A stretch of DNA of 64,000 bases from Candidatus Magasanikiibacteriota bacterium (GTDB lineage: Bacteria; Patescibacteriota; Patescibacteriia; Magasanikbacterales; GWA2-37-8), in the NCBI GenBank assembly GCA_016182085.1, contig JACOYB010000004.1, positions 75,976 to 139,975 on the forward strand, given 5' to 3'. Every line of letters starts with the position of its first letter. Position 1 is the first letter of the stretch. The notes beneath the pieces were generated by a model. That model worked only from the letters and a program-made list of their open reading frames with translations, did no database searches and was not told the DNA's origin. Made by a program: the position numbers and the translations under genes. Shown in pieces: positions 2,583 through 59,120 of this stretch.

Positions 2583-4135
2583 TATTTACTTATTTTTTTT
2601 CGCAGGAGTTTTTCGGTCACGGTTGGATCGGCCGATCCCTCGGTAGCTTTCATGACCATGCCCTTGAGGAATTGAAGAATAGGTTCCTTGCCATTTTTAA
2701 ACTGTTCCACTTGTTGCGGATAATTTTTTATGACTTCATCAATAACTTCCGAGAGTTTTCCTTCATCGCTAATTTGTCCGTAACCTTTTTCTTCCATTAC
2801 ATGGGTTGGGTCCAGATCCACGCCGGAATCAAGCATTTCATTTAGTATCTTTTGAGCGTTGGTAGAGTTTACGCGGTTGGTATAAATAAGCGCTACTAGT
2901 TCGGCAAAGTTTTCCGGTTTTAATCTAAGAATTTTAATATTTATGCTGCGTTCCGCCATCGCGCCCATAAGCTTGCTGGTAATCCAACCGCCGGCAAGTC
3001 TGGCGAGTTGCTGTTGTTTGTTTTGTAGGATTTCGTCCGTATCTGTTTTTGATTCGCTTAGGTTATGCAGCCAGTCTACCAGTTCGCTCATGACCTTTTC
3101 TGTATAGTCGGACCAGTGAAGATCGCTGGAAAGCAGTTCGGCATCTGCATAAGAAAATCCATATTCTTCACGCAGGCGAAGCCTTTTGGCTTGGGGTAAT
3201 TCTGGCAAAGATATATCTCCGGCGATTTTTACCGGGTGAAAAGGCGGAATATCCGGTTCGGGGAAATACCTGTAATCGGCGGCTGTTTCTTTGATTCTTT
3301 GCATCACGGTTTCGCCTTTGTTGTCATCCCAGCCCCTAGTTTGCTGTTTCCAGGCTTCTCCTTTTTCCAGCATGGCGGTTTGCCTGATTATTTCAAACTC
3401 AATCGCTTTTTCCACGGCTCGGAAAGAATTAATGTTTTTTACTTCTACTTTATGATTTAGGGTATAGCCGGCGACCGGTTTTATTACTCCTTTATCGTTT
3501 ATAAATTTATTTTCTTCCTGAAGAGAAATGTTGGCCTCACAGCGCATATTACCCTTTTCCATATCGGCATCGCTGATACCCAAATATCTAAAAATTGCTT
3601 GCAGTTCTTGGGAATACATTTTGGCTTCGGCCGAGCTGGTAACATCCGGTTCGGAAACTATTTCTACCAGCGGCACACCGGCCCGGTTAAAATTCACTAA
3701 AGTATTGCCCGAAGAGTCGTGAGATAATTTAGCCGTGTCTTCCTCCAAGTGTACTCTGGTAATACCGATATGGGCCTTGTCACGATAGTTTTTGCCCGGT
3801 AAGAATTCTAAATCTATATAGCCGTGTTCGCCAATAGGCTGGTCATACTGAGAAATTTGGTAGGCTTTGGGCAGGTCCGGATAAAAATAATGTTTGCGAT
3901 CAAATTTACTTTCGGTATTTATTTGGCAGTTTAATGCCTTGGCAATTTTGGCTGCCCATTCAATTGCCGTGTGGTTTGGCACAGGCAAGGTGCCGGGGTG
4001 GGCCAAGCAGATTTCACAGACATTGGTATTGGGAGCGGCGGAAAAAGGATCGTTTTTGCACGAACAAAACATTTTGCTTTTGGTTTTAAGCTCTACGTGA
4101 ATTTCCATGCCGATTATAGGGGTGTATTTGGGCAT
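2582..4135 (-). CDS. gatB: Asp/Glu-tRNA(Asn/Gln) amidotransferase subunit B
   Basis: 517 aa. N-terminus MPKYTPIIGMEIHVELKTKSKMFCSC with the C-terminal GatB/YqeY domain. Confidence 0.9.
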   Translation of the reverse strand: MPKYTPIIGMEIHVELKTKSKMFCSCKNDPFSAAPNTNVCEICLAHPGTLPVPNHTAIEWAAKIAKALNCQINTESKFDRKHYFYPDLPKAYQISQYDQPIGEHGYIDLEFLPGKNYRDKAHIGITRVHLEEDTAKLSHDSSGNTLVNFNRAGVPLVEIVSEPDVTSSAEAKMYSQELQAIFRYLGISDADMEKGNMRCEANISLQEENKFINDKGVIKPVAGYTLNHKVEVKNINSFRAVEKAIEFEIIRQTAMLEKGEAWKQQTRGWDDNKGETVMQRIKETAADYRYFPEPDIPPFHPVKIAGDISLPELPQAKRLRLREEYGFSYADAELLSSDLHWSDYTEKVMSELVDWLHNLSESKTDTDEILQNKQQQLARLAGGWITSKLMGAMAERSINIKILRLKPENFAELVALIYTNRVNSTNAQKILNEMLDSGVDLDPTHVMEEKGYGQISDEGKLSEVIDEVIKNYPQQVEQFKNGKEPILQFLKGMVMKATEGSADPTVTEKLLRKKISK

Positions 4136-24983: not shown

Positions 24984-25055
24984 CTCCCAGGCTTGGACTC
25001 GAACCAAGGAAATCCACGTTAACAGCGTGGCGTTGTACCGCTCAACTACCTGGGA
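24984..25055 (-). tRNA. tRNA-Asn (anticodon GUU)
   Basis: Minus-strand cloverleaf. Acceptor UCCCAGG/CCUGGGA, D-arm GUUG..CAAC, anticodon stem CCACG/CGUGG with loop CUGUUAA, T-arm CUUGG-UUCGAGU-CCAAG, discriminator G. CCA not encoded. Confidence 0.85.
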
Positions 25056-33273: not shown

Positions 33274-33333
33274 ATTTGTAGCTTAGAGCGTTCATTGACA
33301 ATCAACCAAATACTCACAGACAGGAAGTACCAC

Positions 33334-35670
33334 ATGTCGAAGAAAAGAGATCAGCGCGTCTATTTTTTGAGCGAGATCGCGTACGACGCTCACTTCTTCA
33401 ATGCGGATGCCTATGAGAATTTGGTCAGGTTCCTTGAACAGGATCCCGACGATATCATGCTGGTGGTTGATGGCGCCTTAATTCGCCTCGATCGTCCAGA
33501 AATTCTCAACAGCCTCCTGACGTATTGGGAAAAGAGCGAGAAGGAGTGCCGCAAGGCTAGTGACTTAGTGCCTAATTACGAGCAGAGCCAGAGCATGTTG
33601 AAAGTGCAAATGGAAATCTTGGATAAACATCTGGCTAATCTGCGCAAGCGTTTGCCTGAAGCCAAGATTGTGCTGTGTGTTGATAATGACGATACTCAAT
33701 ACACGGTTTCTCGCATACTTTTGGATCTTCTCATTCATCGCCGCGCCCAAATTAATATGGCCATCAAGGAGATGGTCAAGGAAAAGAGGGGCTTGGCTAC
33801 GGAGTATAAAAAACTCCGGAAGGAATACCGAACCAAGAAGTTCGTTTCTGGAAAGCGCAAGGCAAAGCGCCGGACGATCAAGAAACAACGCCGCGCCCTC
33901 AAGAAAATGGAAGCAGAGATCGTGGCGAGCAAGCAAGAGCTGACTTTGTATCGGGCGCAGAAGATTCGTCCGACGCATCAATTCGTAACGGCTACGTTTG
34001 TAAAGCACCTGATGCAAATGTACAAGGATATTTGCATCAAGCATGAGGTTGAGTTCATGGATCGGCCGCAGGTTCTGCGGTTTGGTAAATCGGAAAGTGA
34101 TCTGACGGTGAAGTATGCGCATAGCGGCCATAAGACTTGGATGCCGGTGCTTCATCGAGATCATTCCTTGGTTCGTTCGGTGCTGGCTAACCAGAACAAG
34201 TACAATAATCTGATTAAGCAGGTGGCTAGCGAAGCTGAGGCGCAGCAGTTCAATGTTTGTGTTGAGAGCGGGCACCATGGAATTGGCTTTGCTACCCTGC
34301 AGAAAATCAAGGACCATCTTCAGGAGACCAACTTTAAGGGGAATTCTGCCTACGATCCAGTGATTGCCGGCTTGAAAGATTACGTGAAAATCTGTTTGGC
34401 AATTCCCTTTGAAGACCAAGAGCTTATTGTGCGGTTTTTGGAGAACCAAGAGCCGGTTCGCATGAGCCTGGGTAAGCCGGGCGGTACAAGGAGTCACGAA
34501 GTCTTCCGTCGTCTCCACAACGGAAGTGTTTCTGGTTTGTTCATGCTTACTAAGAGTGCCAGTGATGGTCTCCTTTGGACTCGATACATCCAGTATCAGG
34601 ACTTTAAGGATGGATCGGTTCTCAATCAGCCAAGTCGCTACTTTGCCGCGTGGGTTACTTCCGATGAGCACTTGGGTTCTCCGGAAGAAAATCCCATGGT
34701 GCGAGATGGTCTGTTCGCCCTCTGTAAGGCGCATGCCGATAATCCATTTAACTTCTACGGTCGGCCAACTGAGCTCGCGTCGTTTATCAGCGGCGGCGAT
34801 ACTTCGGAAGCAACGCTCATCAGGTGGGATCGTCGGTACGATGATCGGCGTGACCCGCAAGAGCTTCTGCAAGAAAATATTGGCAAGTTGGCTAACTTGG
34901 ATCAGGAAAATAGGGAAGAAATTCTTGAGTTAGCCGCCAAAATGGTGAGCGATACAATGAGCGGCTACCCGGGCAGTATGCGAGTGATGTTGGAAAGAGT
35001 GGCCAGGTACTATCAGCAGTTCCTGGATATTACTCTGTCGGTGAGCAAGTCCAAGTGGGCACATCTCTCTGTTCCCGGAAATCACGCAGACGGCGTGTTG
35101 CGTCAAACTGGTTTGCGGGAAACGGATTTTTTTGCGAGAGATGTTAAAGCCCAAGGGGTTGGAGTGTACGAAGTCGGAGTGTCTGATCACTATAGGGCTG
35201 ATTCAATGCAAGGGGCGCGTGTTGGTTTGGGTGGGTATGGTGATGCTCGTATTATCCATATTGAGGATTACGGGCATGGTGTAGATGGCGAGGCATTGTT
35301 CGGTCCAATCAGCTTGTTGATTCAGCATGATCCTGAAGGGCCCGGTACAAGCGGACTGGTTGGCGCAGCGGAAAAAGTAGGCGCAGATGTGGCGCTGGCT
35401 GGCCATGTTCATGAGAATTGGGTAAAGCTGTTCCGGATTGGACTCAACCAATTCAGGGTGGCCTACCGACTCTCTACCGTTCAGGGTGTAACCATGACGG
35501 AAAAGAAGTATGCCAGCTCACCGCCGCGAACGCAGGCTGCACACTGTATTATCATGCCTAAGCCGGGTGATTTTGCAGAAAAAGCTCTGCCAGCTGCGTA
35601 CCTGCGGGAAGTGGGTGTACGGTACAACCTGCAGAAGGTTGAAGAAGAAATTGCCAAGAAAGATACGTAA
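33334..35670 (+). CDS. large metallophosphoesterase-motif protein with KR-rich coiled-coil insert (GC-rich island gene)
   Basis: 778 aa from the ATG with AGGAAG SD (the ORF track starts at an upstream TTG). Calcineurin-like motifs LVVDGALIRLD, GNHADG and AGHVHENW, separated by a long K/R-rich coiled coil (KEKRGLATEYKKLRKEYRTKKFVSGKRKAKRRTIKKQRRALKKMEAEIV). GC content well above the local background. Confidence 0.55.
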   Translation: MSKKRDQRVYFLSEIAYDAHFFNADAYENLVRFLEQDPDDIMLVVDGALIRLDRPEILNSLLTYWEKSEKECRKASDLVPNYEQSQSMLKVQMEILDKHLANLRKRLPEAKIVLCVDNDDTQYTVSRILLDLLIHRRAQINMAIKEMVKEKRGLATEYKKLRKEYRTKKFVSGKRKAKRRTIKKQRRALKKMEAEIVASKQELTLYRAQKIRPTHQFVTATFVKHLMQMYKDICIKHEVEFMDRPQVLRFGKSESDLTVKYAHSGHKTWMPVLHRDHSLVRSVLANQNKYNNLIKQVASEAEAQQFNVCVESGHHGIGFATLQKIKDHLQETNFKGNSAYDPVIAGLKDYVKICLAIPFEDQELIVRFLENQEPVRMSLGKPGGTRSHEVFRRLHNGSVSGLFMLTKSASDGLLWTRYIQYQDFKDGSVLNQPSRYFAAWVTSDEHLGSPEENPMVRDGLFALCKAHADNPFNFYGRPTELASFISGGDTSEATLIRWDRRYDDRRDPQELLQENIGKLANLDQENREEILELAAKMVSDTMSGYPGSMRVMLERVARYYQQFLDITLSVSKSKWAHLSVPGNHADGVLRQTGLRETDFFARDVKAQGVGVYEVGVSDHYRADSMQGARVGLGGYGDARIIHIEDYGHGVDGEALFGPISLLIQHDPEGPGTSGLVGAAEKVGADVALAGHVHENWVKLFRIGLNQFRVAYRLSTVQGVTMTEKKYASSPPRTQAAHCIIMPKPGDFAEKALPAAYLREVGVRYNLQKVEEEIAKKDT

Positions 35671-44757: not shown

Positions 44758-45186
44758 ATGCCAACAATTAATCAACTTATCCGCAAAGGCAGAACCAGCA
44801 AGGTTCGCAAAAGTAAAGTTCCGGCTTTGCAATTTACCGTAGACAATTTGCACAGACGCAAAACTATTTTTGCTAAAGGCTCTTCTTTTAAAAGAGGTGT
44901 TTGCACCAAGGTGTATACCACTACTCCTAAAAAACCAAACTCTGCGCTTCGTAAAGTAGCCAAGGTTCGTTTGTCCAATGGTATGGAAGTAATCGCCTAT
45001 ATTCCGGGAGAAGGACACAATTTACAAGAACACTCTATCGTACTTCTTCGTGGCGGTCGTGTAAAAGACTTGCCAGGTGTACGTTATCATATCGTACGCG
45101 GTGTGTATGATGCTCAAGGCGTTGAAGGACGTCGCAAGGGCCGCAGTTTATACGGAGCCAAGAGACCAAAGGCAGCTAAGAAATAA
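44758..45186 (+). CDS. rpsL: 30S ribosomal protein S12 (with ~20-aa internal insertion)
   Basis: [12 protein letters not shown]...[29 protein letters not shown]...[19 protein letters not shown]. Carries an extra [22 protein letters not shown] segment relative to the ~124-aa canonical form. Confidence 0.93.
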
Positions 45187-45294: not shown

Positions 45295-45771
45295 ATGCGC
45301 GGTGGAAATAAAGATTATAAACGAGAGATAGCTCCGGATCCAAAATTCGGCAGTGTAGCGCTCGCAAAATTCATCAATCACATCATGGAACGAGGCAAAA
45401 AAACTGTGGCTCAATCTATTGTGTATGGCGCGTTTGAAAAAATCGCCGCTACCGGAAAAGACCCAATGAAAGTTTTTGAAGAAGCGATGAAAACCGTACA
45501 GCCTCAAGTGGAAGTACGATCTCGCCGAGTCGGCGGCGCCAATTATCAGGTGCCAATGCCGGTAAGCGTTGGCAGACAAAACGCTCTAACCTTTCGCTGG
45601 GTTGTGGAGGCAGCCAGAAATAAAAAAGGACAAGCTATGGCTGATAAGTTGGCTACAGTGCTTATGGACAGCGCTCAAGGTGTTGGTGATGCGATTAAGA
45701 AACGCGACGATGTTCACAGAATGGCTGAAGCTAATAAAGCCTTTGCTCACTTTGCTAGATTTGCTAAGTAA
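45295..45771 (+). CDS. rpsG: 30S ribosomal protein S7
   Basis: 158 aa. [47 protein letters not shown]. Confidence 0.93.
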
Positions 45772-45862: not shown

Positions 45863-47938
45863 ATGCCTCGTGAATATCCCATAGAAAAAACTCGTAATAT
45901 CGGTATCATGGCGCACATTGACGCGGGTAAGACCACCACTTCCGAACGCGTGCTTTTTTATACCGGCAAGAAACATAAAATTGGCGAAGTGCATGAAGGT
46001 GAAGCGACCATGGACTGGATGGAACAGGAAAAAGAACGCGGTATTACCATTACTTCCGCCGCCACCACTTGTTTTTGGAAAGGCCATCGCATCAACCTCA
46101 TTGATACTCCGGGCCACGTAGACTTTACGGTAGAAGTAGAGCGATCTTTGCGCGTGCTTGATGGCGCCGTGGCTGTGTTTGACGCTTCTCAAGGCGTGGA
46201 ACCACAATCCGAAACTGTCTGGCACCAGGCCGATAAATACAACGTGCCTCGCGTTGCTTTTATAAATAAAATGGATAAGCTCGGCGCGGATTTCTACATG
46301 AGTCTTGATTCCATTAACGAACGATTGTCCGCAAATGCCGTAGCTGTACAATTACCAATTGGCGCTGATAGCAGCTTTTCCGGACTTATAGATATTATTG
46401 AAGAAAAGGCTTTTAAATTTGAAGGCGCTAAAGGTGAAAATATTGTTGAAATGCCAATTCCTGAAGACATGAAAGAAAAGGTAAAAGAATATCGCGCCAA
46501 ACTCATGGAAAAAGTAGCCGAAGCCAATGATGAAATGATGAATAAATATTTAAGCGGAGAAACTTTTTCTATCGATGAATTGAAAACAGGTATTCGCAGC
46601 ATGGTGATTAAAGGCACTATCTATCCAGTGCTTTGCGGTTCGGCACTTGCTAATATCGGCGTGCAATTAATGCTTGACGCGGTGATTGCGTATTTGCCGG
46701 CGCCAACTGACTTGCCTCCGATTAAAGGTATTAACCCGGATACTGAAGCCGAAGAAACCAGATTGCCTTCGGATAAAGAACCTTTCTGCGCTTTGGCTTT
46801 CAAAATTGCTACCGACCCGTTTGTTGGTAAACTTATTTTCTTCCGCGTTTACTCCGGTGTAGTAACTGCCGGTAGTTATGTATATAACTCAAGCACTGGC
46901 GGCAAGGAACGCTTAGGCCGCATTGTGCGTTTGCATGCCAACCAGCGCGAGGATGTGCAAGAAGTTTATGCCGGTGAAATCGCCGCCGCGATTGGTTTGA
47001 AAGAAGTAAGTACCGGTGATACGTTGTGTGATGAAGATAAGCCAATGATCATGTATCGCCCGACTTTTGCCGAACCGGTAATCTCCATGGCGATTGAGCC
47101 AAAAACCAAAGCTGACCAAGAAAAAATTGGTATGGCGCTGCAGAAACTGGCCGAAGAAGATCCAACTTTCCGCGTACATACCGATGAAGAAACCTTGCAA
47201 ACTATTATTGCGGGTATGGGTGAGCTGCACTTGGATATTCTGGTAGACCGCATGCGCCGTGAATTTAAAGTAGAAGCCAATGTTGGTAAGCCGCAAGTAG
47301 CGTATAAAGAAACAATTAAAATGTCTGCCGAAGCCCAGGGTAAATATATCAAGCAGTCCGGTGGTAAGGGTCAGTATGGTGATTGTTGGCTTAAGGTAGA
47401 ACCAAAAGAACAGGGTGCAGGGTATGAATTTGAAGATGATACCAAAGGCGGATCCATCCCTAAAGAATTTATTCCAGCTGTGGAAAAAGGTGTGAAAGCT
47501 TCGCTTACTCGCGGTATTCAAGCAGGCTATCCGGTGGTGGATATAAAAGTTACGGTGTACGACGGTTCATACCACGAAGTTGACTCTTCGGAAATGGCCT
47601 TCAAAATGGCCGGATCCATGGCTTTCCAAGCTGCTTGTAAAAAGGCAAATCCAATCATTATGGAACCGATCATGAAAGTTGAAGTCACCACTCCGGAAGC
47701 ATATATGGGTGATGTGATTGGTGATTTGAACTCAAAACGCGGACAAATTCAGGAAATGTTTGACCGAGGTCAGATCAAAGTTATTAAAGCTATTGTACCT
47801 CTCGCAAGCATGTTTGGTTACGCCACCACGCTTCGCAGTATTTCTCAGGGTCGCGCCAATTATTCCATGGAGTTCGGTCATTATGCCGAAGTGCCAAGAA
47901 ATGTGGCAGAGACTATCATTGCGGGTTCACAGAAGTAA
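45863..47938 (+). CDS. fusA: elongation factor G
   Basis: 691 aa. [32 protein letters not shown] and the domain IV/V signature. Confidence 0.95.
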
Positions 47939-48094
47939 AAAAATAAGGCAAAAACCAACCAATATACCGGTTGGTTTTTGTTTTGGTAAAAATTAGTAAT
48001 TTTATCCACATTTAATGATAAATTTATGGTTATATGCCGGTAGTTTGGTTTGATTTTTTATGGTATAATTCTTCTGTAAAGAAAGTTTGCTCTT

Positions 48095-51000
48095 ATGAAA
48101 AGGGAAAAATTTTTTAGTTTGCATTTCCTCCTTATCAAAAAAAGACTAAAGAGATTTTTTTTGTTGAATTTTCTTTCGCAAGAGAATTCATGTCTGAGTG
48201 AGCCACAGCGAGCGAAGGCGATTCTTTATCGCACCCGTCACATAGTTAATAAAAAACAATTTCGCGCCGCGACGGCTGTGGTTTTACTTATAGTTATTTT
48301 GGTAAATGTATTTTTACCTGAACCCGGGCAAATTGCCCAAGCCGCAACCTATACGTTTGTTCAAACCAGCTGGAGCGGGGGAGCAAGCGCCACCGTTCCG
48401 GTACACCCTACCAACCAAACCAGCTGGAATAAATTTTCCACTAGCACTAGTGCCTTCACAACCGGCACTACAACCGTAACTATTGCCAGTACCACATACA
48501 GTTCTACCGACGATGGAACTTTTTCATCTACCGGCAGCGCGACCGGAGGCGGTTTTAATAATGGCACGACTTCATCCGCAGCTGTTTCGGGCAGCGGCGC
48601 TTCAGCTGTAATTAAATTAACAGGGAGCTCAAGTGCGATAAATCGAGTTACCGTTACTTCCTCAAATAATGGTGCGAGCGCTAATTTTCATGGCGCTTCT
48701 CAAGTCGTTGGCGCTTCCGGATCAGATTATTTATATTTTGTTGAAGCCGCCAATGAAGGCAGGGCATTGCGCCGTTATTCTATTTCCGGAAATTCATGGA
48801 CAGATTTGGCGTCTTATACATATGCCTACTTTGGCGCTCAGTTATTATGGAATGGAAGCGATGATTATATGTATTTAGCTGAAGGCCAAAGTACTGCCTT
48901 TGTTCGTTATTCCATTTCCGGCAATTCTTGGTCATCTATGACTGCTATTCCAGCAGCACTGCCTACCGGCATTACCCAAACGGCCGCTTTGCGCTATGGC
49001 TCAGAAGATTATATCTATCTTTTTAGAGGCGCGGGGCAAACAGCATTTTATCGTTATTCAATTAGTGGAAATAGTTGGGGCACCATGACTGCATTGCCAG
49101 TCGCAGCCGATGTCGGTATCCAAGCTGTCAGAGATGCAGATGGCGATTATATTTATGTGATTACCGGAAATAGCACAGCTTTTTATCGTTATTCTATATC
49201 CGGAAATTCCTGGTCTCATATGGCTTCTAGTTCTGTAAGTCTCACCGGTAACAACGCCAGTGTTTTGCATGATGATGGCAGTGATTATATTTATCTTTTA
49301 ACTAATAATAGTTTCCTTAGATACTCCATTTCCGGAAATTCATGGTCAACTATGGCAGATGCTTCTTCAGTAAATCCTGATTTTGGTTCAACTTTAATCC
49401 ACCCTGCAGGAGGAGATGTTATATATGCGACAGGTGAGTGGGATTGTTGTGGCGCGGTAAGGGTGTGGGGGTACTCTATTTCTGGCAATAGTTGGACAGG
49501 TTACCATATAACTGCGGGTCATTCCGGTGGTTATGGCGCGCCAAATAAAACCGCATACTTAAGATCGGGCGATGAATCATTTTATTTTTTTACTGCCAAT
49601 CAGGATAATGAACTGTTTAAATACACCATGACCGAAACCGTTTATAACACTACGGGTACTTTTACTTCTGCGGCCATGGATTTGGGCGTAGCCGAAATGA
49701 AAAATTTGTCTTGGACCAGCACAACTCCGTCCGGAGTGGGTAATGATGCGATTAAATTTCAACTCGCAGCCAATAATGACAACAGCACCTGGAGCTATGT
49801 TGGCCCAGATGGAACAACTGCTACTTACTTTATAAATAATGGCTCTACTTCATTCCCATCATCTTTTCTTAATAAAAGGTATTGGCGTTATAAAGCGTAT
49901 TTAGGCACATCTAGTACCAGCGCCACGCCATCGCTGGATAATGTTACATTTTCTTATTCTTCTTACGCAACCTCCAGTTATCTTACTTCTTCTATGTACG
50001 ATGCGGGAGATCCAACTAATGTGCTCGCCAGTGTTGCTTGGAATCGGGTGGAGCCGACCAGTACGACAATTAAATTCCAGCTGCGTACCGGTTCTAGCAC
50101 TTCCAGTCTTAACACAGCTGACTTCGTTGGCCCAAGCGGTGTCAGCACGACTTACTTTACTACCAATACCGGAGAAAATACTTCTTCCACCATGCGTGAC
50201 GGATCTAACGATCGCTATTTTCAATATAAAGTTTATTTAGAAACCACAAATCGCGCCTTTACTCCTACGCTCATCGGCGTTACAACCACCTATGTAGTTA
50301 ATGCCAGTCCGGAAATACAAAATGCTTCTTCCAGTCAAATGGCCAGCGGTACGGTATCTATTACTTATCAAGTACGTGACTCAGATACAGATACTGGCAC
50401 AATAAATCCTGGGTATGTGAGCTCTACCTTTGAATATTTAGATGCGGCTGGCGCGTATCAGGTTATTCCAACTAGCCAGCTTTCTTCGGGCGCCAATACC
50501 GTGGCTGTAGACGATGTAAATTGGACTACAAGCAGTGTTACTTGGACTCCGCCGGCAGGTTTAAGTATTGCGGCCAGTAGAATTCGCGTAACATTAAATG
50601 ATAATGAGGCAGCAAATAATACTACGAGTACGATTTCAAATACGTTTCAATTAGATACCGTCACGCCAGCCTCAGGCGCGATTGTGGTGGACGGTTCGCA
50701 AACGTCGGCTTTGGTTACACTTACTGCCGTAGATAGTTCAACTCTGTATATGAAAGTGTCGCTAAATAGCACGCTTTCCGATGTTTCCAGCTGGTCGGCA
50801 TTTTCGGCTACGACCACAATTACCTTAACTTCAAATCCGGCCACCGTATATGTGCAATTTAAAGATGGGTTTAATAACACGTCCAGTATTTTTAGCGCCA
50901 CCACTCCGGAAACACCGAGCAGCACCATAGTTCAAGATATTTCTAATCTGGTAAACGGTATAACCGACTATCGTCTTTTCGTAGCTTGGAAAGTAATAAC

Positions 51001-54000
51001 TACTCCTAGCCCAGGGTTTGCTAATTACATAGTGTATAGATCGCCTGATCAATCTGTATGGACGCCGGTTGCCACCAATACTACCATCACCAACAATTAT
51101 ATTGCGGATAGTTCTGTAGTTTCTAATACGCTTTATTATTATAAAGTGAAATCAACGGATTCTTCAGGCAATGTTTCTATATTTTCATCTATAGTAAACG
51201 GCCGCGCTAACGGTGATCAAGATGCGGGTGAAGGCGGTGGTGGCGCCGGTCCGCCTATAATTACCAGCGTGGCAACCTCTTCGCCAACACCTTCTTCAAT
51301 TACCATTACTTGGAATACGGATGTGCTATCCAATTCCATTGTTGGATTCTCCACCACGGCAGGTAATTTTACCGATAATTCAGTGACGGTCGGTACGATG
51401 GTAGATAGTTCTTCCGGATCCATAGGTCCTCATACCGTAGTTTTGGGAGGACTCACGCCAAATACCACTTATTATTTTAATGTAAAATCCGTTACGGCAG
51501 CTAGTGCTTCCACCACCGAAAATAATGGCGGCAACGGATATATATTTAGAACGCCCAATGGTTCAACCATCACCGGTGTTTCAGCCTCGGAAGTTTATAA
51601 TACCTCTGCGAGAATCGTTTGGAATACTTCGGAAAATGCCGATAGCACCGTCTATTATTCCACTTCCACCAATTTATCAAACGCAATTTCTACCAGCTCA
51701 TCCGCGCTTGGCACATCGCATGATATAACGCTCACCGGACTGACCGGCGGCACGCGATATTATTTTTATGTTCAGTCTGTAAACGCGTCCCAGGTAACTT
51801 CTACAGATAAAAATTTAGTGAGCGGTGTTTATGAATATTATAATTTAGCCACCACGCTTGATACGACGGCGCCGACCATTTCTTCCATTGCCACCACAAC
51901 CAGCAATAATTCTTCAAATGTTACGTGGGTTACAAATGAAGTTGCTAACTCTCAAATAATATACGGTACAACTACCAATTACGGATCCACTACCACCTTG
52001 GATTCCACCTATACCACTCAACATCTTGTGACGGTCGCTGGCCTCGCTTCATCTACGCTGTATCACTTCAAAATTTTATCAAGAGATAAAAATGATAATT
52101 TAACCTCTTCCACCGACCAGGTAATAACCACATCCGCGGCTCCAGATGCGACGGCGCCGACAATTACCAGCGTCACTACTTCCAGCGTGACGCTTACTGG
52201 AGTTACGATTACCTGGTCAACAAACGAAAATGCCAGTTCTATTGTGGAGTATGGTCTGACTACATCTTCATATAACTATATTGCTGGTTCTAATACCACA
52301 TCGGTTACTTCACACTCTGTGTCTTTAACGGGATTAAGCGGCAATACTACATATTATTTCCGAGTCAGATCCACGGACTCATCTGGAAATGCTGGGCTCG
52401 ATGATAATAACGGCAATGGCTGGAGGTTTGTAACCGTGGCCGATACGACCGCTCCGACGATTTCTAATGTTACAATTTTAGTTAATAATACTTCTTCAAT
52501 TATTACTTGGACTACCAATGAAGCCGCCACTTCGGAAATTAACTATGATACAACTGCCGGAGTCTATGGCGCTACGGTTTCAAGTTCCACCCTTAATACC
52601 GGACATTCAATTACGCTTACCGGATTAACGGCAAATACCACCTATTATTTCCGTATCAGATCTGCAGATGCTTCCAGTAATACTAGTACGGATAATAACG
52701 GCGGCACGGGTTATAGCTTTACGACGCTGGCGGCGCCAGTTACGGTTATTGGCGGCGGCGGAAGCGGGGCGGCCGTGGATAGGGATCCGCCGTCTATTGC
52801 AAATCTTAGCATTACTGATATTACGCCAATTTCAGCAAGTGTATCTTGGAGCACAAATGAAGAGGGGAATTCTTTAATACGTTATGGTTCAACAGTCCAG
52901 TATGGAACCTTGGTTGGAAATGATGAACAATTATTATCATCTCAACATAATGTAAAACTGTTTAATTTGAAACCCGGACAAACGTATCATTTGAAAGCAG
53001 TTACCTATGATGCGGCCGGCAATCGTTCCGAGTCGCAAGACCAGATATTTACCACTCTAAATGCTGATGGTACGCAAGCAACTTCAACTGCCACTACAAC
53101 TACTGCTACAAGCACCCAAGATAGCGAGTTGCCTCCAGAAACACAATTTATATCAGAATCTTTGCAAAAAGCCTCAAGCCGATCTCTGCAGCAATTTTTG
53201 AAAGATATAGCGTCCAATCCGCTGCTTAAAGATATTCCGGAAGATAAATTTATTCAAGCATTGCTTGAAATGGCCAGTAAAGTTATAGAGGCGCCGACCA
53301 TTGTCGGTATTAAGCCAACCGTGGAGGTAAGGGGCACTACGGCAATTATTACCTGGTCTACGGATAAAAAATCGACTTCCGAAGTCAACTTTGCCAAAGA
53401 TAGTAATTATAAGCCTGCTGATCGCAGTCCGTACACCAATGCTGCGGTGAACCCCGATGAATTTGGGCTTGCTCATAGAGTAGAATTAACCGGTCTTGAT
53501 GCGGGTATTCTGTATCACTTTAAAGTGATATCCCGCGGTTTAATTGGCCCAGAAGCCTCTAGCGCTGATTTTACGTTCCGAACCTCGGGCGAGTTGCCGG
53601 CGATTTCCGATATACGAGTTACCAGACCTACGAATACTCAATCCATGGTAGTGGTGGGCTGGAGAACTAATGTTCCGACAGCCGGTACCGTAGAGTATAA
53701 GAATGCCAGATCCGGCCAATCCTTAACTCAAGGAGACGCAAGTTTGCTCATCAACCACGAGGTTACTCTGAAGTCGCTTGAAGGTGGAATAAATTATACA
53801 TTGGTTATAAAAGCTAAGGATGAATTTAACAACGAAGTTTCCAGTTTGCCGATAACATTCTCTACTTCGCTTGATAAGGCTCAACCAACCATTTCCAAAC
53901 TCTCTTCAGATTCCACATTATATCCTGGCAGAGATTCCAAAGTGCAGACAATTATTTCTTGGGAAACCGATGAACCGGCCACCTCGCAAGTATTCTATCA

Positions 54001-54256
54001 AGAAGGATTATCTGGTGATAATATCGTATCATTACCTTTGGACACGGCCTTAAATACCAGACATATTGTTGTGGTAACGAAATTTAAACCTGGTACGGTC
54101 TATAAATATTGGGTAGAATCCAAAGACTTGGCCGGCAATATGGCCAAATCCGAAGTATTCTCAATCCTGACGCCGCAAGAAAAAGAAACTATCATTGATA
54201 TTATTATCAATAATTTCCAATCAGTATTCGGCTGGACCAAAAATATTGGAATCTAG
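48095..54256 (+). CDS. giant membrane-anchored surface protein: six-blade YSISGNSW-repeat propeller plus ~10 fibronectin-III-like domains
   Basis: 2053 aa. N-terminal TM anchor (AATAVVLLIVILVNVF). Six ~55-aa repeats each containing (Y/F)(R/V)YSISGNSW(S/T). Then repeated ~95-aa modules with (I/V)TW.TNE...S...YG.T..Y......H.V.LTGL...TTYYF(R/K)(V/I)(R/K)S.D.SGN. S/T-rich linkers. Confidence 0.85.
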   Translation: MKREKFFSLHFLLIKKRLKRFFLLNFLSQENSCLSEPQRAKAILYRTRHIVNKKQFRAATAVVLLIVILVNVFLPEPGQIAQAATYTFVQTSWSGGASATVPVHPTNQTSWNKFSTSTSAFTTGTTTVTIASTTYSSTDDGTFSSTGSATGGGFNNGTTSSAAVSGSGASAVIKLTGSSSAINRVTVTSSNNGASANFHGASQVVGASGSDYLYFVEAANEGRALRRYSISGNSWTDLASYTYAYFGAQLLWNGSDDYMYLAEGQSTAFVRYSISGNSWSSMTAIPAALPTGITQTAALRYGSEDYIYLFRGAGQTAFYRYSISGNSWGTMTALPVAADVGIQAVRDADGDYIYVITGNSTAFYRYSISGNSWSHMASSSVSLTGNNASVLHDDGSDYIYLLTNNSFLRYSISGNSWSTMADASSVNPDFGSTLIHPAGGDVIYATGEWDCCGAVRVWGYSISGNSWTGYHITAGHSGGYGAPNKTAYLRSGDESFYFFTANQDNELFKYTMTETVYNTTGTFTSAAMDLGVAEMKNLSWTSTTPSGVGNDAIKFQLAANNDNSTWSYVGPDGTTATYFINNGSTSFPSSFLNKRYWRYKAYLGTSSTSATPSLDNVTFSYSSYATSSYLTSSMYDAGDPTNVLASVAWNRVEPTSTTIKFQLRTGSSTSSLNTADFVGPSGVSTTYFTTNTGENTSSTMRDGSNDRYFQYKVYLETTNRAFTPTLIGVTTTYVVNASPEIQNASSSQMASGTVSITYQVRDSDTDTGTINPGYVSSTFEYLDAAGAYQVIPTSQLSSGANTVAVDDVNWTTSSVTWTPPAGLSIAASRIRVTLNDNEAANNTTSTISNTFQLDTVTPASGAIVVDGSQTSALVTLTAVDSSTLYMKVSLNSTLSDVSSWSAFSATTTITLTSNPATVYVQFKDGFNNTSSIFSATTPETPSSTIVQDISNLVNGITDYRLFVAWKVITTPSPGFANYIVYRSPDQSVWTPVATNTTITNNYIADSSVVSNTLYYYKVKSTDSSGNVSIFSSIVNGRANGDQDAGEGGGGAGPPIITSVATSSPTPSSITITWNTDVLSNSIVGFSTTAGNFTDNSVTVGTMVDSSSGSIGPHTVVLGGLTPNTTYYFNVKSVTAASASTTENNGGNGYIFRTPNGSTITGVSASEVYNTSARIVWNTSENADSTVYYSTSTNLSNAISTSSSALGTSHDITLTGLTGGTRYYFYVQSVNASQVTSTDKNLVSGVYEYYNLATTLDTTAPTISSIATTTSNNSSNVTWVTNEVANSQIIYGTTTNYGSTTTLDSTYTTQHLVTVAGLASSTLYHFKILSRDKNDNLTSSTDQVITTSAAPDATAPTITSVTTSSVTLTGVTITWSTNENASSIVEYGLTTSSYNYIAGSNTTSVTSHSVSLTGLSGNTTYYFRVRSTDSSGNAGLDDNNGNGWRFVTVADTTAPTISNVTILVNNTSSIITWTTNEAATSEINYDTTAGVYGATVSSSTLNTGHSITLTGLTANTTYYFRIRSADASSNTSTDNNGGTGYSFTTLAAPVTVIGGGGSGAAVDRDPPSIANLSITDITPISASVSWSTNEEGNSLIRYGSTVQYGTLVGNDEQLLSSQHNVKLFNLKPGQTYHLKAVTYDAAGNRSESQDQIFTTLNADGTQATSTATTTTATSTQDSELPPETQFISESLQKASSRSLQQFLKDIASNPLLKDIPEDKFIQALLEMASKVIEAPTIVGIKPTVEVRGTTAIITWSTDKKSTSEVNFAKDSNYKPADRSPYTNAAVNPDEFGLAHRVELTGLDAGILYHFKVISRGLIGPEASSADFTFRTSGELPAISDIRVTRPTNTQSMVVVGWRTNVPTAGTVEYKNARSGQSLTQGDASLLINHEVTLKSLEGGINYTLVIKAKDEFNNEVSSLPITFSTSLDKAQPTISKLSSDSTLYPGRDSKVQTIISWETDEPATSQVFYQEGLSGDNIVSLPLDTALNTRHIVVVTKFKPGTVYKYWVESKDLAGNMAKSEVFSILTPQEKETIIDIIINNFQSVFGWTKNIGI

Positions 54257-54274
54257 CGGTATGACCAATTTAAC

Positions 54275-55606
54275 TTGTTTTCCATGGAGCCAATTATCAA
54301 AACAGAAAATATTAAAGTTATATATAATAAAGGCCAAGATAATCAGTATATTGCGCTCAATGATATTAGTATAGAAGTATTTCCGGAAGAGTATTTAATT
54401 TTTTTCGGGCCATCCGGTTGCGGTAAATCAACCTTGCTCTATACGATTTTGGGGCTGCAGAAATTAAGCGAAGGCAAATTATATATAAAAGGCAAGGACA
54501 GCGCCTCTTTTTCGGAAGCTGAAAAACGGAACATGGATTCTCAGTTTTTTGGCATCGTATTTCAAAATTTTAACCTGATATACTCGTTAAATGTTTTGGA
54601 TAATATCACCTTGCCCCAGGTTTTTATTGAAGCCGACCAAGAAGCTAGAAAGGCGAAAGCACACACGCTGCTCGCTCGGTTTGGCATAGAGACCAGAGCC
54701 AAAAATTTACCGGCATCGCTCTCCGGCGGTCAGCAGCAACGCGTAGCTATTTGTCGGTCGCTTGTAAATGACCCGGTTGTGCTGCTAGCCGATGAGCCGG
54801 TCGGAAACTTGGATAGTGAATCGGCCAGGATCGTAATGGAAACACTTTGGGATATCAATAAAAAAGATAAAAAAACCGTTATTTTAGTTACCCACGACCC
54901 AAGCTACCTGCCATTTGCCGACCGTATATATTATTTCAAGGATGCAAAATTGGAAAAGGTGGTAAAAAACGCCAATCCGCAACCAATGCATGCCAAGCCA
55001 AACGAAACACCGCAGAGCCAAGGCCAAGATACACCGCTCGGAGAACTTGAAAAAATGGCGCGCGCGCATAATTTTATGACTGTGCCGCAGCTTAAGGCCT
55101 GGAGCGTAACCAATTATTTAACTGATGAATTTACGGTCAATCAATTGGAACGCTTGGAAAAATGCATGGAAGAAATACTCGCGGGAGAGTTGAGCGAACA
55201 TCAGTTTTTTGAGCGTTTAAATATGCCATATAGTGATGGCGGTGTTGGTTTGTATAGAGGCACGGCCATTAGATTTGTGCGCAAAATTTCTTCGGTTCTA
55301 AAAGAAGTTAAGGAATTTTTACAGCATCTAAAAATTAGCAAGGATCCGGAAAAAAATGCAAAGTTAGTTGATATGCTTCGGAAGTTTTTATTGGAAGAAT
55401 ATCGTGGTACCCTAAAGGAAGGGCAAATAGAGCTTTTGGAAAAAGGCATTAACGATCGTTTGCTTGGCGCAATGAGCGCGGCGCAATTTAGCGTGCTTTT
55501 GGACAAGCCGTTTGCCGAAGGGGGTGTCGGGTTAAATTCCCTTACGGCCGAACATTTATCCGAACGGCTAGAAATTATTTTGGCTCAAGCATATGAAGTC
55601 AGCTGA
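54275..55606 (+). CDS. ABC transporter ATP-binding protein (MacB/LolD-like) with C-terminal tandem-repeat extension
   Basis: Walker A FGPSGCGKSTLL, signature LSGGQQQRVAICRSL, Walker B LLADEPVGNLD. A ~200-aa C-terminal tail holds two related repeats (LNMPYSDGGVGLYRGTAIRFVRKI / LDKPFAEGGVGLNSLTAEHLSERL). Confidence 0.85.
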   Translation: MFSMEPIIKTENIKVIYNKGQDNQYIALNDISIEVFPEEYLIFFGPSGCGKSTLLYTILGLQKLSEGKLYIKGKDSASFSEAEKRNMDSQFFGIVFQNFNLIYSLNVLDNITLPQVFIEADQEARKAKAHTLLARFGIETRAKNLPASLSGGQQQRVAICRSLVNDPVVLLADEPVGNLDSESARIVMETLWDINKKDKKTVILVTHDPSYLPFADRIYYFKDAKLEKVVKNANPQPMHAKPNETPQSQGQDTPLGELEKMARAHNFMTVPQLKAWSVTNYLTDEFTVNQLERLEKCMEEILAGELSEHQFFERLNMPYSDGGVGLYRGTAIRFVRKISSVLKEVKEFLQHLKISKDPEKNAKLVDMLRKFLLEEYRGTLKEGQIELLEKGINDRLLGAMSAAQFSVLLDKPFAEGGVGLNSLTAEHLSERLEIILAQAYEVS

Positions 55607-56792
55607 TCTCTTTTCCTTATCAACTAGAATGTTTAGGACCAATCCATCTCGTACCTGGCTGACTGTTTTGGGTATCAGCGTAGGCATATCGGCGGTGTTA
55701 TTTTTGGTTTCACTCGGGTATGGACTGCAAAATGTTATTTTAGAGAAAATTGTTTTTAACCAGGCGTTGTTAAGTTTAGTTATTACTCCAAGTACGGATG
55801 TGATTATCCTAGACGACACTGCCATATCCGATATTTCTAAAATTTCAAATGTTGCCGATGTCGCGCCGCTCGCTAAATTTACCGGCCAGGTGTCGCTAGA
55901 CGGTATCAATGGAACTGTAGAAATGAGAGCTGTGGATTCTCCCTATTTTTCTTATTCTGGTACGGCGGTAAAATTTGGCAGTCTGTATGAAGAAAATGAT
56001 CAAAATCAAATATTGATATCCGAAGCGGTGCTCCAGCTATTTGGCATTACGGATCCCAATTTAGTTTTAGGAAAGCAGGTTAATTTAAAAATTTTTAACA
56101 GTAAAACTACTTTGGGTCAGGAGCAGCTTGAGATTGTTGATATCCCCGTTAAATATACGATAAAAGGGATTATAGAAGACAATCAAGAGAGTTATGTTTT
56201 TTTATCGCTCAAAGAAACGACCGGTTATTTAAAAGTTAGCAGCTACGAACAAGCCCGAGTAAAAGCAAATAGCAGCAATGATTTGCCATTTATAAAAGAA
56301 GAGGTTATCGCGAGAGGCTATCAAACACAGTCGCTTTCAGAAACCATTGATCAGGCCAATAAAATTTTCCGGGTTATTCAAATTGTTTTGGGGCTTTTCG
56401 GCGCCGTGGCGCTCGTTGTTTCTTCCATCGGCATGTTTAATACCATGACGGTTACGCTCCTGGAGCGTACCAATGAAATTGGTATTATGAGATCGCTTGG
56501 AGCAAGCCGGAGTAATTTACGCAACTTATTTTTATCCGAGTCGGTCATCATCGGATTTTTAGGCGGGTTGGTTGGTACGGCCATCGGCATAATGGGCGGC
56601 CAGATTTTTAATTTTGCAATTAATAGTCTGGCGGCAAAATTTGGCGGCGCCAAAACCGACCTATTTGTGTATCCGGTTTCATTCCTGCTTATCATTATTT
56701 TTCTTTCAGTTTTTATCGGATTCTTGTCCGGTATTTTTCCAGCCCGCCGCGCCGCGGGTATGGACCCTTTAGAGGCATTGCGGTATAAGTAA
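55593..56792 (+). CDS. ABC transporter permease, FtsX/MacB-like with periplasmic core domain
   Basis: 399 aa. N-terminal TM, large extracytoplasmic domain, C-terminal FtsX-type TM bundle (IGIMRSLGASRSNLRNLFLSESVIIGFLGGLVG). Overlaps the ATPase gene by 14 nt. Confidence 0.85.
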   Translation: MKSADLFSLSTRMFRTNPSRTWLTVLGISVGISAVLFLVSLGYGLQNVILEKIVFNQALLSLVITPSTDVIILDDTAISDISKISNVADVAPLAKFTGQVSLDGINGTVEMRAVDSPYFSYSGTAVKFGSLYEENDQNQILISEAVLQLFGITDPNLVLGKQVNLKIFNSKTTLGQEQLEIVDIPVKYTIKGIIEDNQESYVFLSLKETTGYLKVSSYEQARVKANSSNDLPFIKEEVIARGYQTQSLSETIDQANKIFRVIQIVLGLFGAVALVVSSIGMFNTMTVTLLERTNEIGIMRSLGASRSNLRNLFLSESVIIGFLGGLVGTAIGIMGGQIFNFAINSLAAKFGGAKTDLFVYPVSFLLIIIFLSVFIGFLSGIFPARRAAGMDPLEALRYK

Positions 56793-56900: not shown

Positions 56901-57317
56901 ATGCAAAATTCTCAGATCAATAGAGTGGTGAGATTAGTAAGGAGAACCGGCGAAAAAGCGGTAATTATGGATACCGAATCAGATGCAGTCATGATGCTTA
57001 TGGATCTTGGCGCTTATGAAAAGATGCTGGAGAACTCTGAAGGGATAGAGAAATTAACCGAAGAAGAATTGATGGAGAAGATTAATAGAGATGTGGCCGT
57101 CTGGCGCGCCTATAATGATAAAGAACGACTGGAAACAATTGATAAGGTCGTAGAAAAGCCGGTACCAGCGCAACCAGCTAAGATTGAGCCTGAAAAACCG
57201 CGAGAAAACAAAGCCGTAACTCTCGATTATGGCGCTACTGTTGGTCCGGAAGAATCAGTGAGCGACATTGCTTCAGAAGAAGGGGAGGAGAAGTTCTACT
57301 TAGAACCAGTAGAGTAG
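56901..57317 (+). CDS. hypothetical acidic protein
   Basis: 138 aa with an E-rich C-terminal half. No motif recognised. Confidence 0.4.
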   Translation: MQNSQINRVVRLVRRTGEKAVIMDTESDAVMMLMDLGAYEKMLENSEGIEKLTEEELMEKINRDVAVWRAYNDKERLETIDKVVEKPVPAQPAKIEPEKPRENKAVTLDYGATVGPEESVSDIASEEGEEKFYLEPVE

Positions 57318-57364
57318 GGGGTAAAAAAGGGAAAAAACCCATTTCCTATCCACAATTTGTCCCC

Positions 57365-57393
57365 TTGCAATTTTTTTATTTATCTGCTACAAT
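57365..57393 (+). promoter_or_regulatory. tuf promoter (TTGCAA-17-TACAAT) with palindromic leader element
   Basis: ttgcaatttttttatttatctgctacaat. The leader contains the near-perfect palindrome ttccgaagggatcccttcgggaa at 57452-57474. Confidence 0.5.
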
Positions 57394-57538
57394 GCTCACG
57401 CTATTAAACTTTATTGAATAATTAGCAAAATTTTAATAATTTTAACATAAATTCCGAAGGGATCCCTTCGGGAAATAACGGCTGGACAAAAAATCTATTC
57501 CGACCACTCGGTAATAGTGCCGTATAAGGATTAAACTT

Positions 57539-58726
57539 ATGGCTGAGTTTATTAGAAACAAGCCACACGTAAATATTGGTACTATTGGTCACGTTGACCA
57601 TGGTAAAACTACGCTAACCGCAGCTATTTTGTCAGTTTTGCGCAGCCGTGGTGGAGCCGCTTCAAACAAGGGTGTTGATGATTTGGATAAATCTCCAGAG
57701 TCAAAAGCTCGTGGTATTACCATTTCTACCGCTCACGTAGAATATGAAACCGATAACAGACACTATGCTCACGTTGACTGTCCAGGTCACGCTGACTATG
57801 TTAAAAACATGATTACCGGCGCTGCTCAAATGGACGGCGCTATCCTTGTAGTTTCTGCCGCTGACGGTCCGATGCCTCAGACTCGTGAGCACATCTTGCT
57901 TGCTCGTCAGGTAGGTGTACCTTATATCGTTGTTTTCTTAAACAAAGTTGATCAGGTTTCTGATCCAGAACTTATTGATCTCGTAGAAGCCGAAGTTCGC
58001 GATCTCTTAAAGAAGTACGAATTCCCTGGCGACACCACTCCTATCATCCGCGGTTCCGCTTTGCAGGCTTTGCAAAACCCAACCGATGAAGCTGCTTCTA
58101 AGCCAGTTTTGGACTTAATGAAAGCAGTTGATGAATATATTCCTCAACCAGTGCGTGATACTGACAAGCCATTCCTGATGCCTATTGAAGACGTATTCTC
58201 CATTGAAGGCCGCGGTACGGTAGTAACCGGTCGTATGGAAAGAGGTATCGTTCACATTAACGATGAAGCTGAAATCGTAGGTATCAAAGATACCCAAAAG
58301 ACTGTTGTTACCGGTGTGGAAATGTTTAACAAACAGCTTAAAGAAGGTCAGGCTGGCGACAACGTTGGTTTGTTGCTTCGCGGTACCAAGAAGGAAGATG
58401 TAGAACGTGGTATGGTAATCGCCAAACCAGGCACTATCACTCCCCACACTGATTTTGAAGCTCAAGTATATATCTTGACCAAAGATGAAGGCGGCAGACA
58501 CAAACCATTCTTCAAAGGTTATAAACCACAGTTCTATATCAGAACTACCGATGTAACCGGTGAAGTAGAACTCGCAGCTGGCACTGAAATGGTTATGCCT
58601 GGCGACACTATCAGCTTTACTGTTAAATTAATTACTCCAGTAGCGATGGAAGACAAGATGAATTTTGCTATCCGCGAGGGTGGTAAAACCGTAGGCGCTG
58701 GTGTAGTAACTAAAATCTTAAAATAA
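57539..58726 (+). CDS. tuf: elongation factor Tu
   Basis: 395 aa. [26 protein letters not shown]. Confidence 0.96.
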
Positions 58727-58778: not shown

Positions 58779-59120
58779 ATGAAAGATACTCAGCACAAAA
58801 AAACCGTGGAGGAAACTATTAGCCGAATTAGAATTAAGATTCGTGCTTATGATAACAAAATTATAGATCAGGCTACCAAAAATATCATTGAGACAGCCGA
58901 ACGTCATGGCGCCCAAATCGTTGGTCCGATTCCTTTGCCTACCGAAAAGACCAAATTTACCGTAAACCGTTCCACTTTTGTGCATAAAGATGCCCGCGAA
59001 CAATACGAAATGCGCGTTCATAAACGATTGATTGATATTTTAAATCCTACTGCCAAAACCGTAGATGCGCTCATGAGTTTGCAAGTTCCAGCCGGTGTAG
59101 ACATCGAAATAAAAATGTAA
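58779..59120 (+). CDS. rpsJ: 30S ribosomal protein S10
   Basis: [43 protein letters not shown]. ~15-aa N-terminal extension if the start is at 58779. Confidence 0.88.

Follow-up and report, generated by a model that had tools for sequence, protein, structure and literature searches.

How Patescibacteria assemble their surface is largely unknown, and this surface is the interface of the attachment lifestyle in the few cultivated members. Here, we describe a giant surface protein and an adjoining ATP-binding cassette (ABC) pair encoded between the translation genes fusA and tuf in a stretch of 64,000 nucleotides (nt; hereafter the window) from Candidatus Magasanikiibacteriota bacterium (GenBank assembly GCA_016182085.1, contig JACOYB010000004.1, positions 75,976 to 139,975 of the forward strand). 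Comparison with related loci revealed that the genes for the giant, the ATPase, and the permease make up one conserved cassette of Patescibacteria, which we propose to be an envelope module.

Gene content between fusA and tuf

The genes rpsL, rpsG, and fusA are followed by those for a 2053-amino-acid (aa) protein (the giant), an ABC ATPase, a permease with MacB_PCD and FtsX domains, and a 138-aa acidic protein, and then by tuf and rpsJ (Table 1). An earlier note on this DNA, made from the sequence alone, had read the same order and gene sizes, as we confirmed, and had taken all four genes between fusA and tuf for one insertion; the latter did not hold, as relatives without the giant-ATPase-permease cassette, or with it elsewhere, still have the 138-aa gene linked to tuf. 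The ATPase and the 138-aa protein match NCBI proteins assigned to Candidatus Magasanikbacteria (Patescibacteria, Parcubacteria group) at 100% identity. The related loci that we compared with the window are given as L numbers, L001 being a near-identical strain (98% identity). The start codon of the giant gene at 48095 is backed by an N-terminus (MKREKFFSL..LIKKRLK) kept in L001, L011, and L013, while the ATPase start was placed at ATG 54284 (homologues begin MEPIIK), the listed open reading frame (ORF; 54275-55606) opening at an upstream TTG. Only 27 nt lie between the giant stop and the ATPase start, and the first 14 nt of the permease gene coincide with the end of the ATPase gene. The 48-54 kb region has a GC skew of zero to negative, which is probably due to Ser/Thr-rich composition; since the GC content (0.42-0.44) and GC at third codon positions (GC3) match those of adjoining genes, we do not take the skew to indicate a foreign origin.

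A surface protein with a propeller head, a repeat stalk, and a conserved tail

The giant opens with a basic stretch ahead of its sole hydrophobic segment; the first 24 residues are kept in close relatives, and the length of the stretch among relatives ranges from 44 to >110 aa. At the long extreme, the giant of L016 (2598-10004) has a cytoplasmic N-terminal region of >110 aa ahead of its transmembrane (TM) segment, which by eye only resembles an excisionase-type helix-turn-helix (...NRSWQFDRKYVDKLI...). In the window, the hydrophobic segment may either stay as a signal anchor or be a long Sec signal that is cleaved off: what follows it, A-x-[AG] and then ATYTFxQxxWSGG, is kept in L001, L011, L013, and L015 and looks like a signal-peptidase site, with predicted cleavage at AQA/A. 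The single N-terminal TM anchor of the earlier note thus stands as one hydrophobic segment, which may be an anchor or a cleavable signal.

Beyond this segment, an AlphaFold2 model limited to aa 84-736 and built on 58 homologues (mean predicted local distance difference test, pLDDT, 82.9) consists of a small beta domain, seven successive four-stranded sheets, and two beta-sandwiches; the two sandwiches (aa ~521-736) had no match in Pfam. The motif YSISGNSW occurs exactly six times (aa 228, 272, 321, 366, 410, and 460) at a spacing of 44-50 aa, followed by a seventh, degenerate unit (ESFYFF...LFKYTMTETVY), and homologues carry Kelch_1 and Kelch_6 domains. Together, repeats, homologue domains, and model identify the head as a Kelch-type propeller with six canonical blades and one degenerate blade. 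A propeller had been suspected from these repeats, so that part stands, although with seven modelled blades rather than six and with a shorter repeat than the ~55 aa first read. A galactose-oxidase-like enzymatic role was considered for the propeller and rejected, as identity is ~10%, the active site is unreadable, and the kept motif is the structural Kelch motif.

C-terminal to the head, a self-built module profile detected nine strong modules of the fibronectin type III (FN3) type (independent E-values 1e-25 to 1e-31) and a divergent one at aa 943-1027, so that the "about ten" modules first counted are nine plus a divergent tenth. Scores above curated Pfam cut-offs, both for Pur_ac_phosph_N (3e-52; 175.4 bits against a cut-off of 30; seven stretches) and for fn3 (1e-36; 125.4 bits against 25; five stretches), place the array in the FN3 class at the profile level. 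Tandem Repeats Finder detected no DNA-level tandem repeats in the giant gene, indicating that the protein repeats are ancient.

The protein ends in a 28-aa tail, TPQEKETIIDIIINNFQSVFGWTKNIGI, whose motif TPxxKETIxxIIxxFxxxFGW stops 3-6 residues before the stop codon in all 31 loci where a motif search detected it, as well as in the window. The tail has an amphipathic-helix pattern and contains no TM segment (top 19-residue hydropathy in the last 60 aa, 0.66). It matched no NCBIfam model, CTERM models included, and without a C-terminal TM helix the giant lacks a sorting signal of the sortase or exosortase type (LPXTG, PEP-CTERM). Overall, Pfam, the module profile, and the head model support the surface-exposed protein with propeller head and FN3 stalk that had been proposed for this locus.

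A type VII ABC pair with an extended ATPase

The ATPase matches ABC_tran (E 1.4e-30), and its catalytic motifs, from Walker A to the H-loop (GPSGxGKST, Q97, LSGGQ, DEP, and H207), are all invariant across 50 homologues. Its nucleotide-binding domain is followed by a C-terminal extension of ~190 aa, which is all-helical in the model (pLDDT ~85-95), consists of two ~85-aa repeats with a GGVGL loop conserved in each, and has no sequence match in Pfam or the PDB. A HMMER search over 1.84 billion representatives retrieved 202 relatives of the extension; near-full-length matches were mostly at residues ~250-435 of 420-460-aa proteins, and the remainder comprised many shorter fragments and a few longer proteins, possibly fusions. 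We infer that the extension is a cytoplasmic regulatory or dimerisation domain.

The permease has MacB_PCD at aa 21-238 (8e-17) and FtsX at aa 268-392 (7e-20), with four TM regions by hydropathy and an extracytoplasmic MacB_PCD of ~200 aa; its PDB matches are Bacillus subtilis YtrF (E 6e-30), MacB, a pneumococcal MacB-like permease, and LolC/E/F. The earlier assignment of the pair to the MacB/FtsX kind is therefore upheld by domains, topology, and solved relatives. All NCBIfam equivalogs considered (LolCE, MacB, FtsX, LolD, FtsE, and DarD) scored far under cut-off, e.g., LolD with 177.9 bits against 307.75, lolCE with 87.6 against 362.45, FtsE with 158.6 against 264.85, and FtsX_Gpos with 50.7 against 225. 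On these profile scores, the pair is a generic type VII (MacB/FtsX superfamily) system and no orthologue of a named one.

The cassette is conserved in changing genomic contexts

A contig scan with one protein returned only the 98%-identical strain and unrelated ABC ATPases. The arrangement of the window recurs in loci whose ATPase is 98%, 77%, or 67% identical; at 53% (L015), giant, ATPase, and permease lie upstream of rpsL, and at 45% (L016), the trio lies between MscL and a mechanosensitive-channel gene, with no str genes within 10 kb. In the window, L001, L011/L012, L013, L015, and L016, the gene just before the ATPase encodes a tail-bearing giant; the L014 sequence is cut at the ATPase. 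A metagenome scan from the last FN3 module and the tail yielded 27 loci, and among those with a TP-type tail and enough downstream sequence, 14/17 had an extended ATPase and a permease downstream. In L016, L025, L026, L027, L029, L030, and L031, stop codons overlap or directly adjoin the start codons that follow. The dedicated ABC-giant link suggested earlier is thus supported: in every informative relative, and in three contexts, the extended ATPase lies directly 3' of a tail-bearing FN3 protein.

The part of the partner protein that is conserved is a base module of a helical linker, three FN3 modules, and the strictly C-terminal tail, whereas the N-terminal heads vary (one propeller in the window, two in L015, and other arrangements elsewhere). 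The linker is common to the giants and to paralogues of 509-660 aa, and the layout of six FN3 modules, linker, and three FN3 modules is kept in L011, L013, and L015. The L026 partner has only 509 aa (signal peptide, one FN3, linker, three FN3, and tail), yet stands directly before the ABC pair.

These findings bear on the possibility that the ABC pair works on its own, as an envelope exporter or a resistance pump (its substrate being, e.g., a peptide, lipid, glycan precursor, or antimicrobial), and is co-located and co-regulated with the giant gene without acting on the giant. The nucleotide-binding domain scores best against the exporter families DarD, LolD, MacB, and DevA (all under cut-offs), glycan-related genes (Wzy_C and a Pel9A-like beta-helix protein) follow the pair in L014, and some tail-bearing proteins have no ABC pair nearby, all of which a free-standing pump would accommodate. 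It would account less well for an adjacency that persists down to 45% ATPase identity through changing flanks and frequent stop/start overlaps, for a constant neighbour that is the base-and-tail module even at 509 aa, and for a conserved neighbourhood that includes no gene for an adaptor, a channel, or biosynthesis. We thus consider an independent pump a real though unlikely option.

Between the window and L001, the synonymous substitution rate (dS) is 0.87-1.05 over aa 84-520, as compared with 0.05-0.35 in the rest of the giant and 0.10-0.20 in flanking genes; that is, the head (48344-49654) is 3- to 10-fold above the rest of the giant and its neighbours. The ratio of nonsynonymous to synonymous rates (dN/dS) stays at ≤0.14 except in the N-terminal cytoplasmic/TM segment, where it reaches 0.71 (67 codons), and the two tails share 100% identity. 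Raised dS with low dN/dS makes the head a recombined or older allele under purifying selection, and this sequence pattern indicates allelic replacement or recombination restricted to the head.

Variation at the head also speaks to a further explanation, in which the giant is a structural coat (S-layer or sheath) and the ABC pair aids lattice assembly or anchoring. Such a coat might be expected from the long FN3 arrays, from a Ser + Thr content of 28%, and from the smaller paralogues with the same base module, as for co-assembling components; however, variable heads and deep head divergence between strains fit a ligand-binding tip better, and the codon usage given below is unlike that of a cell's most abundant protein. 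The giant has no SLH or other S-layer Pfam domain, an absence that is indecisive because S-layer proteins are diverse. A coat seems to us distinctly unlikely.

Table 1 Features of the fusA-tuf region, in window coordinates
Feature	Position	Strand	Basis or remark
rpsL	44758-45186		
rpsG	45295-45771		
fusA	45863-47938		
Hairpin, intrinsic-terminator-like	47949-47980	+	14-bp stem between A- and T-runs, directly 3' of fusA stop
Promoter-like region of giant gene	48002-48069	+	TTATCCACA box and extended -10
Giant surface protein, 2053 aa	48095-54256	+	ORF
Sole hydrophobic segment (aa 54-81), then AQA/ATYTF (aa 81-88)	48254-48343	+	Hydropathy
N-terminal beta-rich domain, aa 84-200	48344-48694	+	Model; first 28 residues low confidence
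Kelch-type beta-propeller, aa ~201-520, seven blades	48695-49654	+	Repeats, homologue Pfam, model
Two beta-sandwich domains, aa ~521-736	49655-50302	+	Model, pLDDT ~85-95
Unassigned beta-rich region (aa 737-942) and divergent FN3 (aa 943-1027)	50303-51247	+	Profile
Six tandem FN3 (Pur_ac_phosph_N-type) modules, aa 1052-1644	51248-53026	+	Pfam and own profile
Helical linker, aa 1651-1730, ~80 aa; start of base module	53045-53284	+	Conservation
Three FN3 modules, aa 1732-2016	53288-54142	+	Own profile
C-terminal tail, 28 aa	54170-54253	+	Conserved motif TPQEKETIIDIIINNFQSVFGWTKNIGI
ABC ATPase, 440 aa	54284-55606	+	Start set by homologues
ATPase nucleotide-binding domain	to ~54970	+	Pfam, alignment, model
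ATPase C-terminal extension	~55034-55603	+	Pfam, alignment, model
MacB_PCD + FtsX permease	55593-56792	+	
138-aa acidic protein, net charge -13	56901-57317	+	tuf-linked, outside cassette
tuf promoter: CTATCCACA box and TTGCAA-17-(TG)CTACAAT	57346-57393	+	Conserved in relatives
Structured element in tuf 5' untranslated region	57478-57523	+	Conservation; outside cassette
tuf	57539-58726		
rpsJ	58779-59120		

Transcription signals and placement of the cassette

The earlier note had inferred high expression of the cassette from its position in the str operon, a claim opposed by a terminator-like hairpin after fusA, a promoter-like element of the giant's own, and ordinary codon usage. Hairpins of -21 to -28 kcal/mol with a T-run lie at the same place in L001, L011, and L013; the L001 sequence is the window's own, while those of L011 and L013 are unrelated to it, so that hairpin and T-run kept despite unrelated sequence point to a conserved terminator. 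Read-through past it is possible. Between fusA and this terminator, L001 has ~260 extra bases (3450-3710) with three hairpin-forming units, each ending TAGTAATTATAA, which are absent in the window and resemble a small-repeat insertion.

Upstream of the giant gene, TTATCCACA at 48002-48010 and an extended -10, TGgTATAAT, at 48061-69 flank a partial copy (~48026-48035), and box and TGnTATAAT are kept 26 nt apart in L011 and L013. This box is the consensus DnaA box; with 21 matches vs 16 expected, it shows no enrichment over the window. A similar box, CT[AG]TCCACA, is just upstream of the tuf -35 in 7/8 loci (not recognisable in L018; the window copy is CTATCCACA, 57346-57354), and the two may be a shared operator. 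Giant, ATPase, and permease have codon adaptation indices of 0.65, 0.60, and 0.58, respectively, within the 0.50-0.65 of ordinary genes and below the 0.74-0.76 of rpsL, fusA, and tuf, values that are inflated by the membership of these three in the reference set, i.e., the translation genes of the window.

In this clade, the fusA-tuf interval is a variable slot that always holds a gene of the 138-aa type. In L014 (2697-5905) and L044 (7881-9752), a Wzy_C (O-antigen-ligase-like) gene, a Pel9A-like beta-helix gene, or both occupy this slot on the opposite strand; envelope and glycan genes seem to accumulate there. As a finding that would refute its reading, the earlier note had named the same gene lying far from the str operon in related genomes, and this is partly the case, with relatives that have the cassette far from that operon.

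The reading offered there was of a four-gene insertion exploiting str transcription for an abundant host-attachment fibre, with tuf gaining a compensating promoter. All genes between fusA and tuf do lie on one strand, and the Magasanikbacteria relatives L001, L011, L013, and L018 keep this arrangement. However, besides the hairpin, the promoter-like element, and the ordinary codon usage described above, the cassette lies elsewhere in L015, L016, L026, L027, L031, and L032, and the 138-aa gene and the tuf promoter occur without a cassette at the site in L015, L044, and L045. Locus comparison thus largely refutes hitchhiking on str transcription, which we regard as highly improbable; the site of the cassette is better read as specific to this lineage, in a slot whose content varies, than as a means of borrowing str-operon transcription.

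The 138-aa gene, promoter, and leader of tuf

In all loci examined, whether or not they have the cassette, a homologue of the 138-aa protein is encoded just before tuf; these loci include L015 (cassette elsewhere), L044 (only the beta-helix gene between fusA and tuf), and L045. Members of the family share a conserved N-terminal domain and an invariant C-terminal peptide (EEKFYLEPVE), joined by an acidic linker that varies, and are restricted to Patescibacteria (94 clusters, all unnamed). The 138-aa protein had no Pfam or PDB match; a Phd/YefM-like nature, suggested by eye, was discarded after Pfam, a PDB profile search, and BLAST against a YefM sequence gave nothing significant.

The promoter read at 57365-57393 (TTGCAA-17-TACAAT) is by itself a 9/12 match and no better than shuffled sequence, while CTTGCA-17-TGyTAyAAT is kept in 8/8 loci. 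Since these include cassette-free loci, tuf did not gain its promoter through the cassette, contrary to what had been assumed. Comparing the fusA-tuf junction among relatives, as the earlier note had recommended, hence revealed a variable insertion beside a constant 138-aa gene and tuf promoter that are not part of it.

About 15 nt before the tuf start, a ~46-nt element (ACGGC-UGGAnAAAAAU-CUAU-CCGA-CCAC-UCGG-AUAG-GCCGU) is present in the window, L011, L013, L014, L015, L018, L044, and L045. RNAalifold predicts 13 pairs, three of them with compensatory changes (CUAU/AUAG, CCGC/GCGG, and CUGC/GCAG), and the tuf leader had no Rfam match. The element is a candidate cis-regulatory leader of tuf in this clade.

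Other observations in the window

Two further regions differ in composition. An ORF of 861 aa (22334-24919, minus strand), which encodes DUF4238 and a SEC-C motif, sits in a patch of low GC (0.34; GC3 0.29) and adjoins the only tRNA gene in the window (24984-25055); this region may be an island or a defence-type insertion. A 791-aa ORF (33295-35670) in a raised-GC stretch has no Pfam match, a GC3 of 0.56 as compared with ~0.40 elsewhere, and the lowest codon adaptation index of the genes tested (0.50).

A proposed fibre-deployment module and its known counterparts

We propose, at a probability of about one half, that giant, ATPase, and permease are a surface-fibre module docked or actuated by a type VII ABC complex. 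The giant would be exported by Sec through its N-terminal signal, possibly with cleavage at the site noted above. Its FN3 array would be the stalk, the Kelch propeller and beta-sandwiches the distal ligand-binding head, and the conserved base and tail the cell-proximal end. This orientation is suggested by a base that is conserved, a head that varies, and signals that are cleavable in members of the family. The ABC complex would not transport this ~2000-residue protein across the membrane; rather, ATP hydrolysis would be passed to the extracytoplasmic domain, which would dock, deploy, release, or switch the conformation of base and tail. Conserved, tightly packed synteny is what suggests this coupling, and by analogy with related systems the complex may act on the base from the outer face of the membrane by mechanotransmission. 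Host attachment by an episymbiont is a plausible role for the giant.

Several observations weigh against this proposal. The evidence tying the ABC pair to the giant is conserved neighbourhood, and the loci, many of them from related organisms, are not all independent. Three TP-type loci have no ABC pair downstream (within ~2 kb in L019 and 10 kb in L036 and L038), nor has any of the ~650-aa TAK-type paralogues (10 kb in L040 and L041; ~2 kb in the others). The tblastn query used for confirmation contained the tail, so that finding the tail in every match is partly circular. In addition, an uncleaved N-terminal anchor would reverse the orientation and put the propeller beside the membrane, and YtrEF, the closest solved relative, is without an established function (PMC12772383).

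Known systems offer partial parallels. FtsEX is a type VII ABC system that acts by mechanotransmission on an extracytoplasmic partner (PcsB, CwlO, EnvC, or RipC) and does not transport. Both FtsEX and the present pair have separate genes for the ATPase and a four-TM permease, but the permease here has a ~200-aa MacB_PCD instead of the FtsX extracytoplasmic domain, the ATPase has an extra 190-aa helical domain, and the giant has no coiled-coil or hydrolase domain, so that neither model scores nor partner domains make the pair a member of FtsEX. LolCDE acts on lipoproteins from the outer face of the membrane, likewise by type VII ABC mechanotransmission. Like LolCDE and LolDF, the present system has a permease of MacB_PCD and FtsX, alignable over its full length to LolE and LolF, and shares the concept that an ABC machine works from the outer face on a protein that Sec has exported and that is tethered to the membrane. 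It differs in having a single permease gene, in a giant without a lipobox cysteine (the signal region lacks Cys), and in its host, as cells of the Magasanikbacteria group are thought to lack an outer membrane; with these differences and the LolD and lolCE scores, it does not belong to LolCDE.

The MacAB-TolC system is of the same fold family in its MacB and has related ATPase motifs, but here the nucleotide-binding and membrane domains are on separate genes, and the interval from fusA to tuf in the window encodes neither an adaptor nor a channel, which sets this locus apart from MacAB-TolC. YtrEF (PDB 9o9x), from a single-membrane bacterium, provides the best-scoring solved permease relative (E 6e-30 over the C-terminal TM region), yet has no adjacent giant and no ATPase extension, and its mutants have no clear phenotype (PMC12772383). 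LapA and SiiE are, like the giant, very large repeat-stalk surface proteins beside an ABC system, and their C-terminal ends bear function (for SiiE, PMC6272769). Theirs is an HlyB-type exporter with adaptor and outer-membrane channel and no Sec signal, in contrast to the N-terminal Sec-type signal and MacB-type pair found here; with no RTX or HlyB-type domain in Pfam and a hydrophobic N-terminal signal present, the giant falls outside type I secretion.

In other Patescibacteria, available passages of two papers describe very large signal- or TM-bearing proteins with adhesion domains, including FN3, for which host contact was proposed (PMC13059738, PMC11809585); these passages do not describe the cassette, the tail, or the extended ATPase, nor did a literature search of incomplete coverage find a description of any of them. 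Large FN3 surface proteins are thus known as candidate Patescibacteria adhesins, while cassette, tail, and ATPase extension may be new. A bolder idea, which we hold to be unlikely, is that the tail, linker, and three-FN3 base are a new Patescibacteria sorting or docking signal with the MacB-type pair and its extended ATPase as dedicated machine. If true, ABC-driven anchoring or deployment would apply to a whole fibre family of giants and ~650-aa paralogues, a new mechanism with a logic like that of Lol or exosortase systems.

Together, these analyses supply two uncharacterised sequence elements, the C-terminal tail and the helical ATPase extension, and illustrate that siting among translation genes need not mean co-expression with them. 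The three-gene module is a concrete, testable candidate for the deployment of surface proteins in Patescibacteria.

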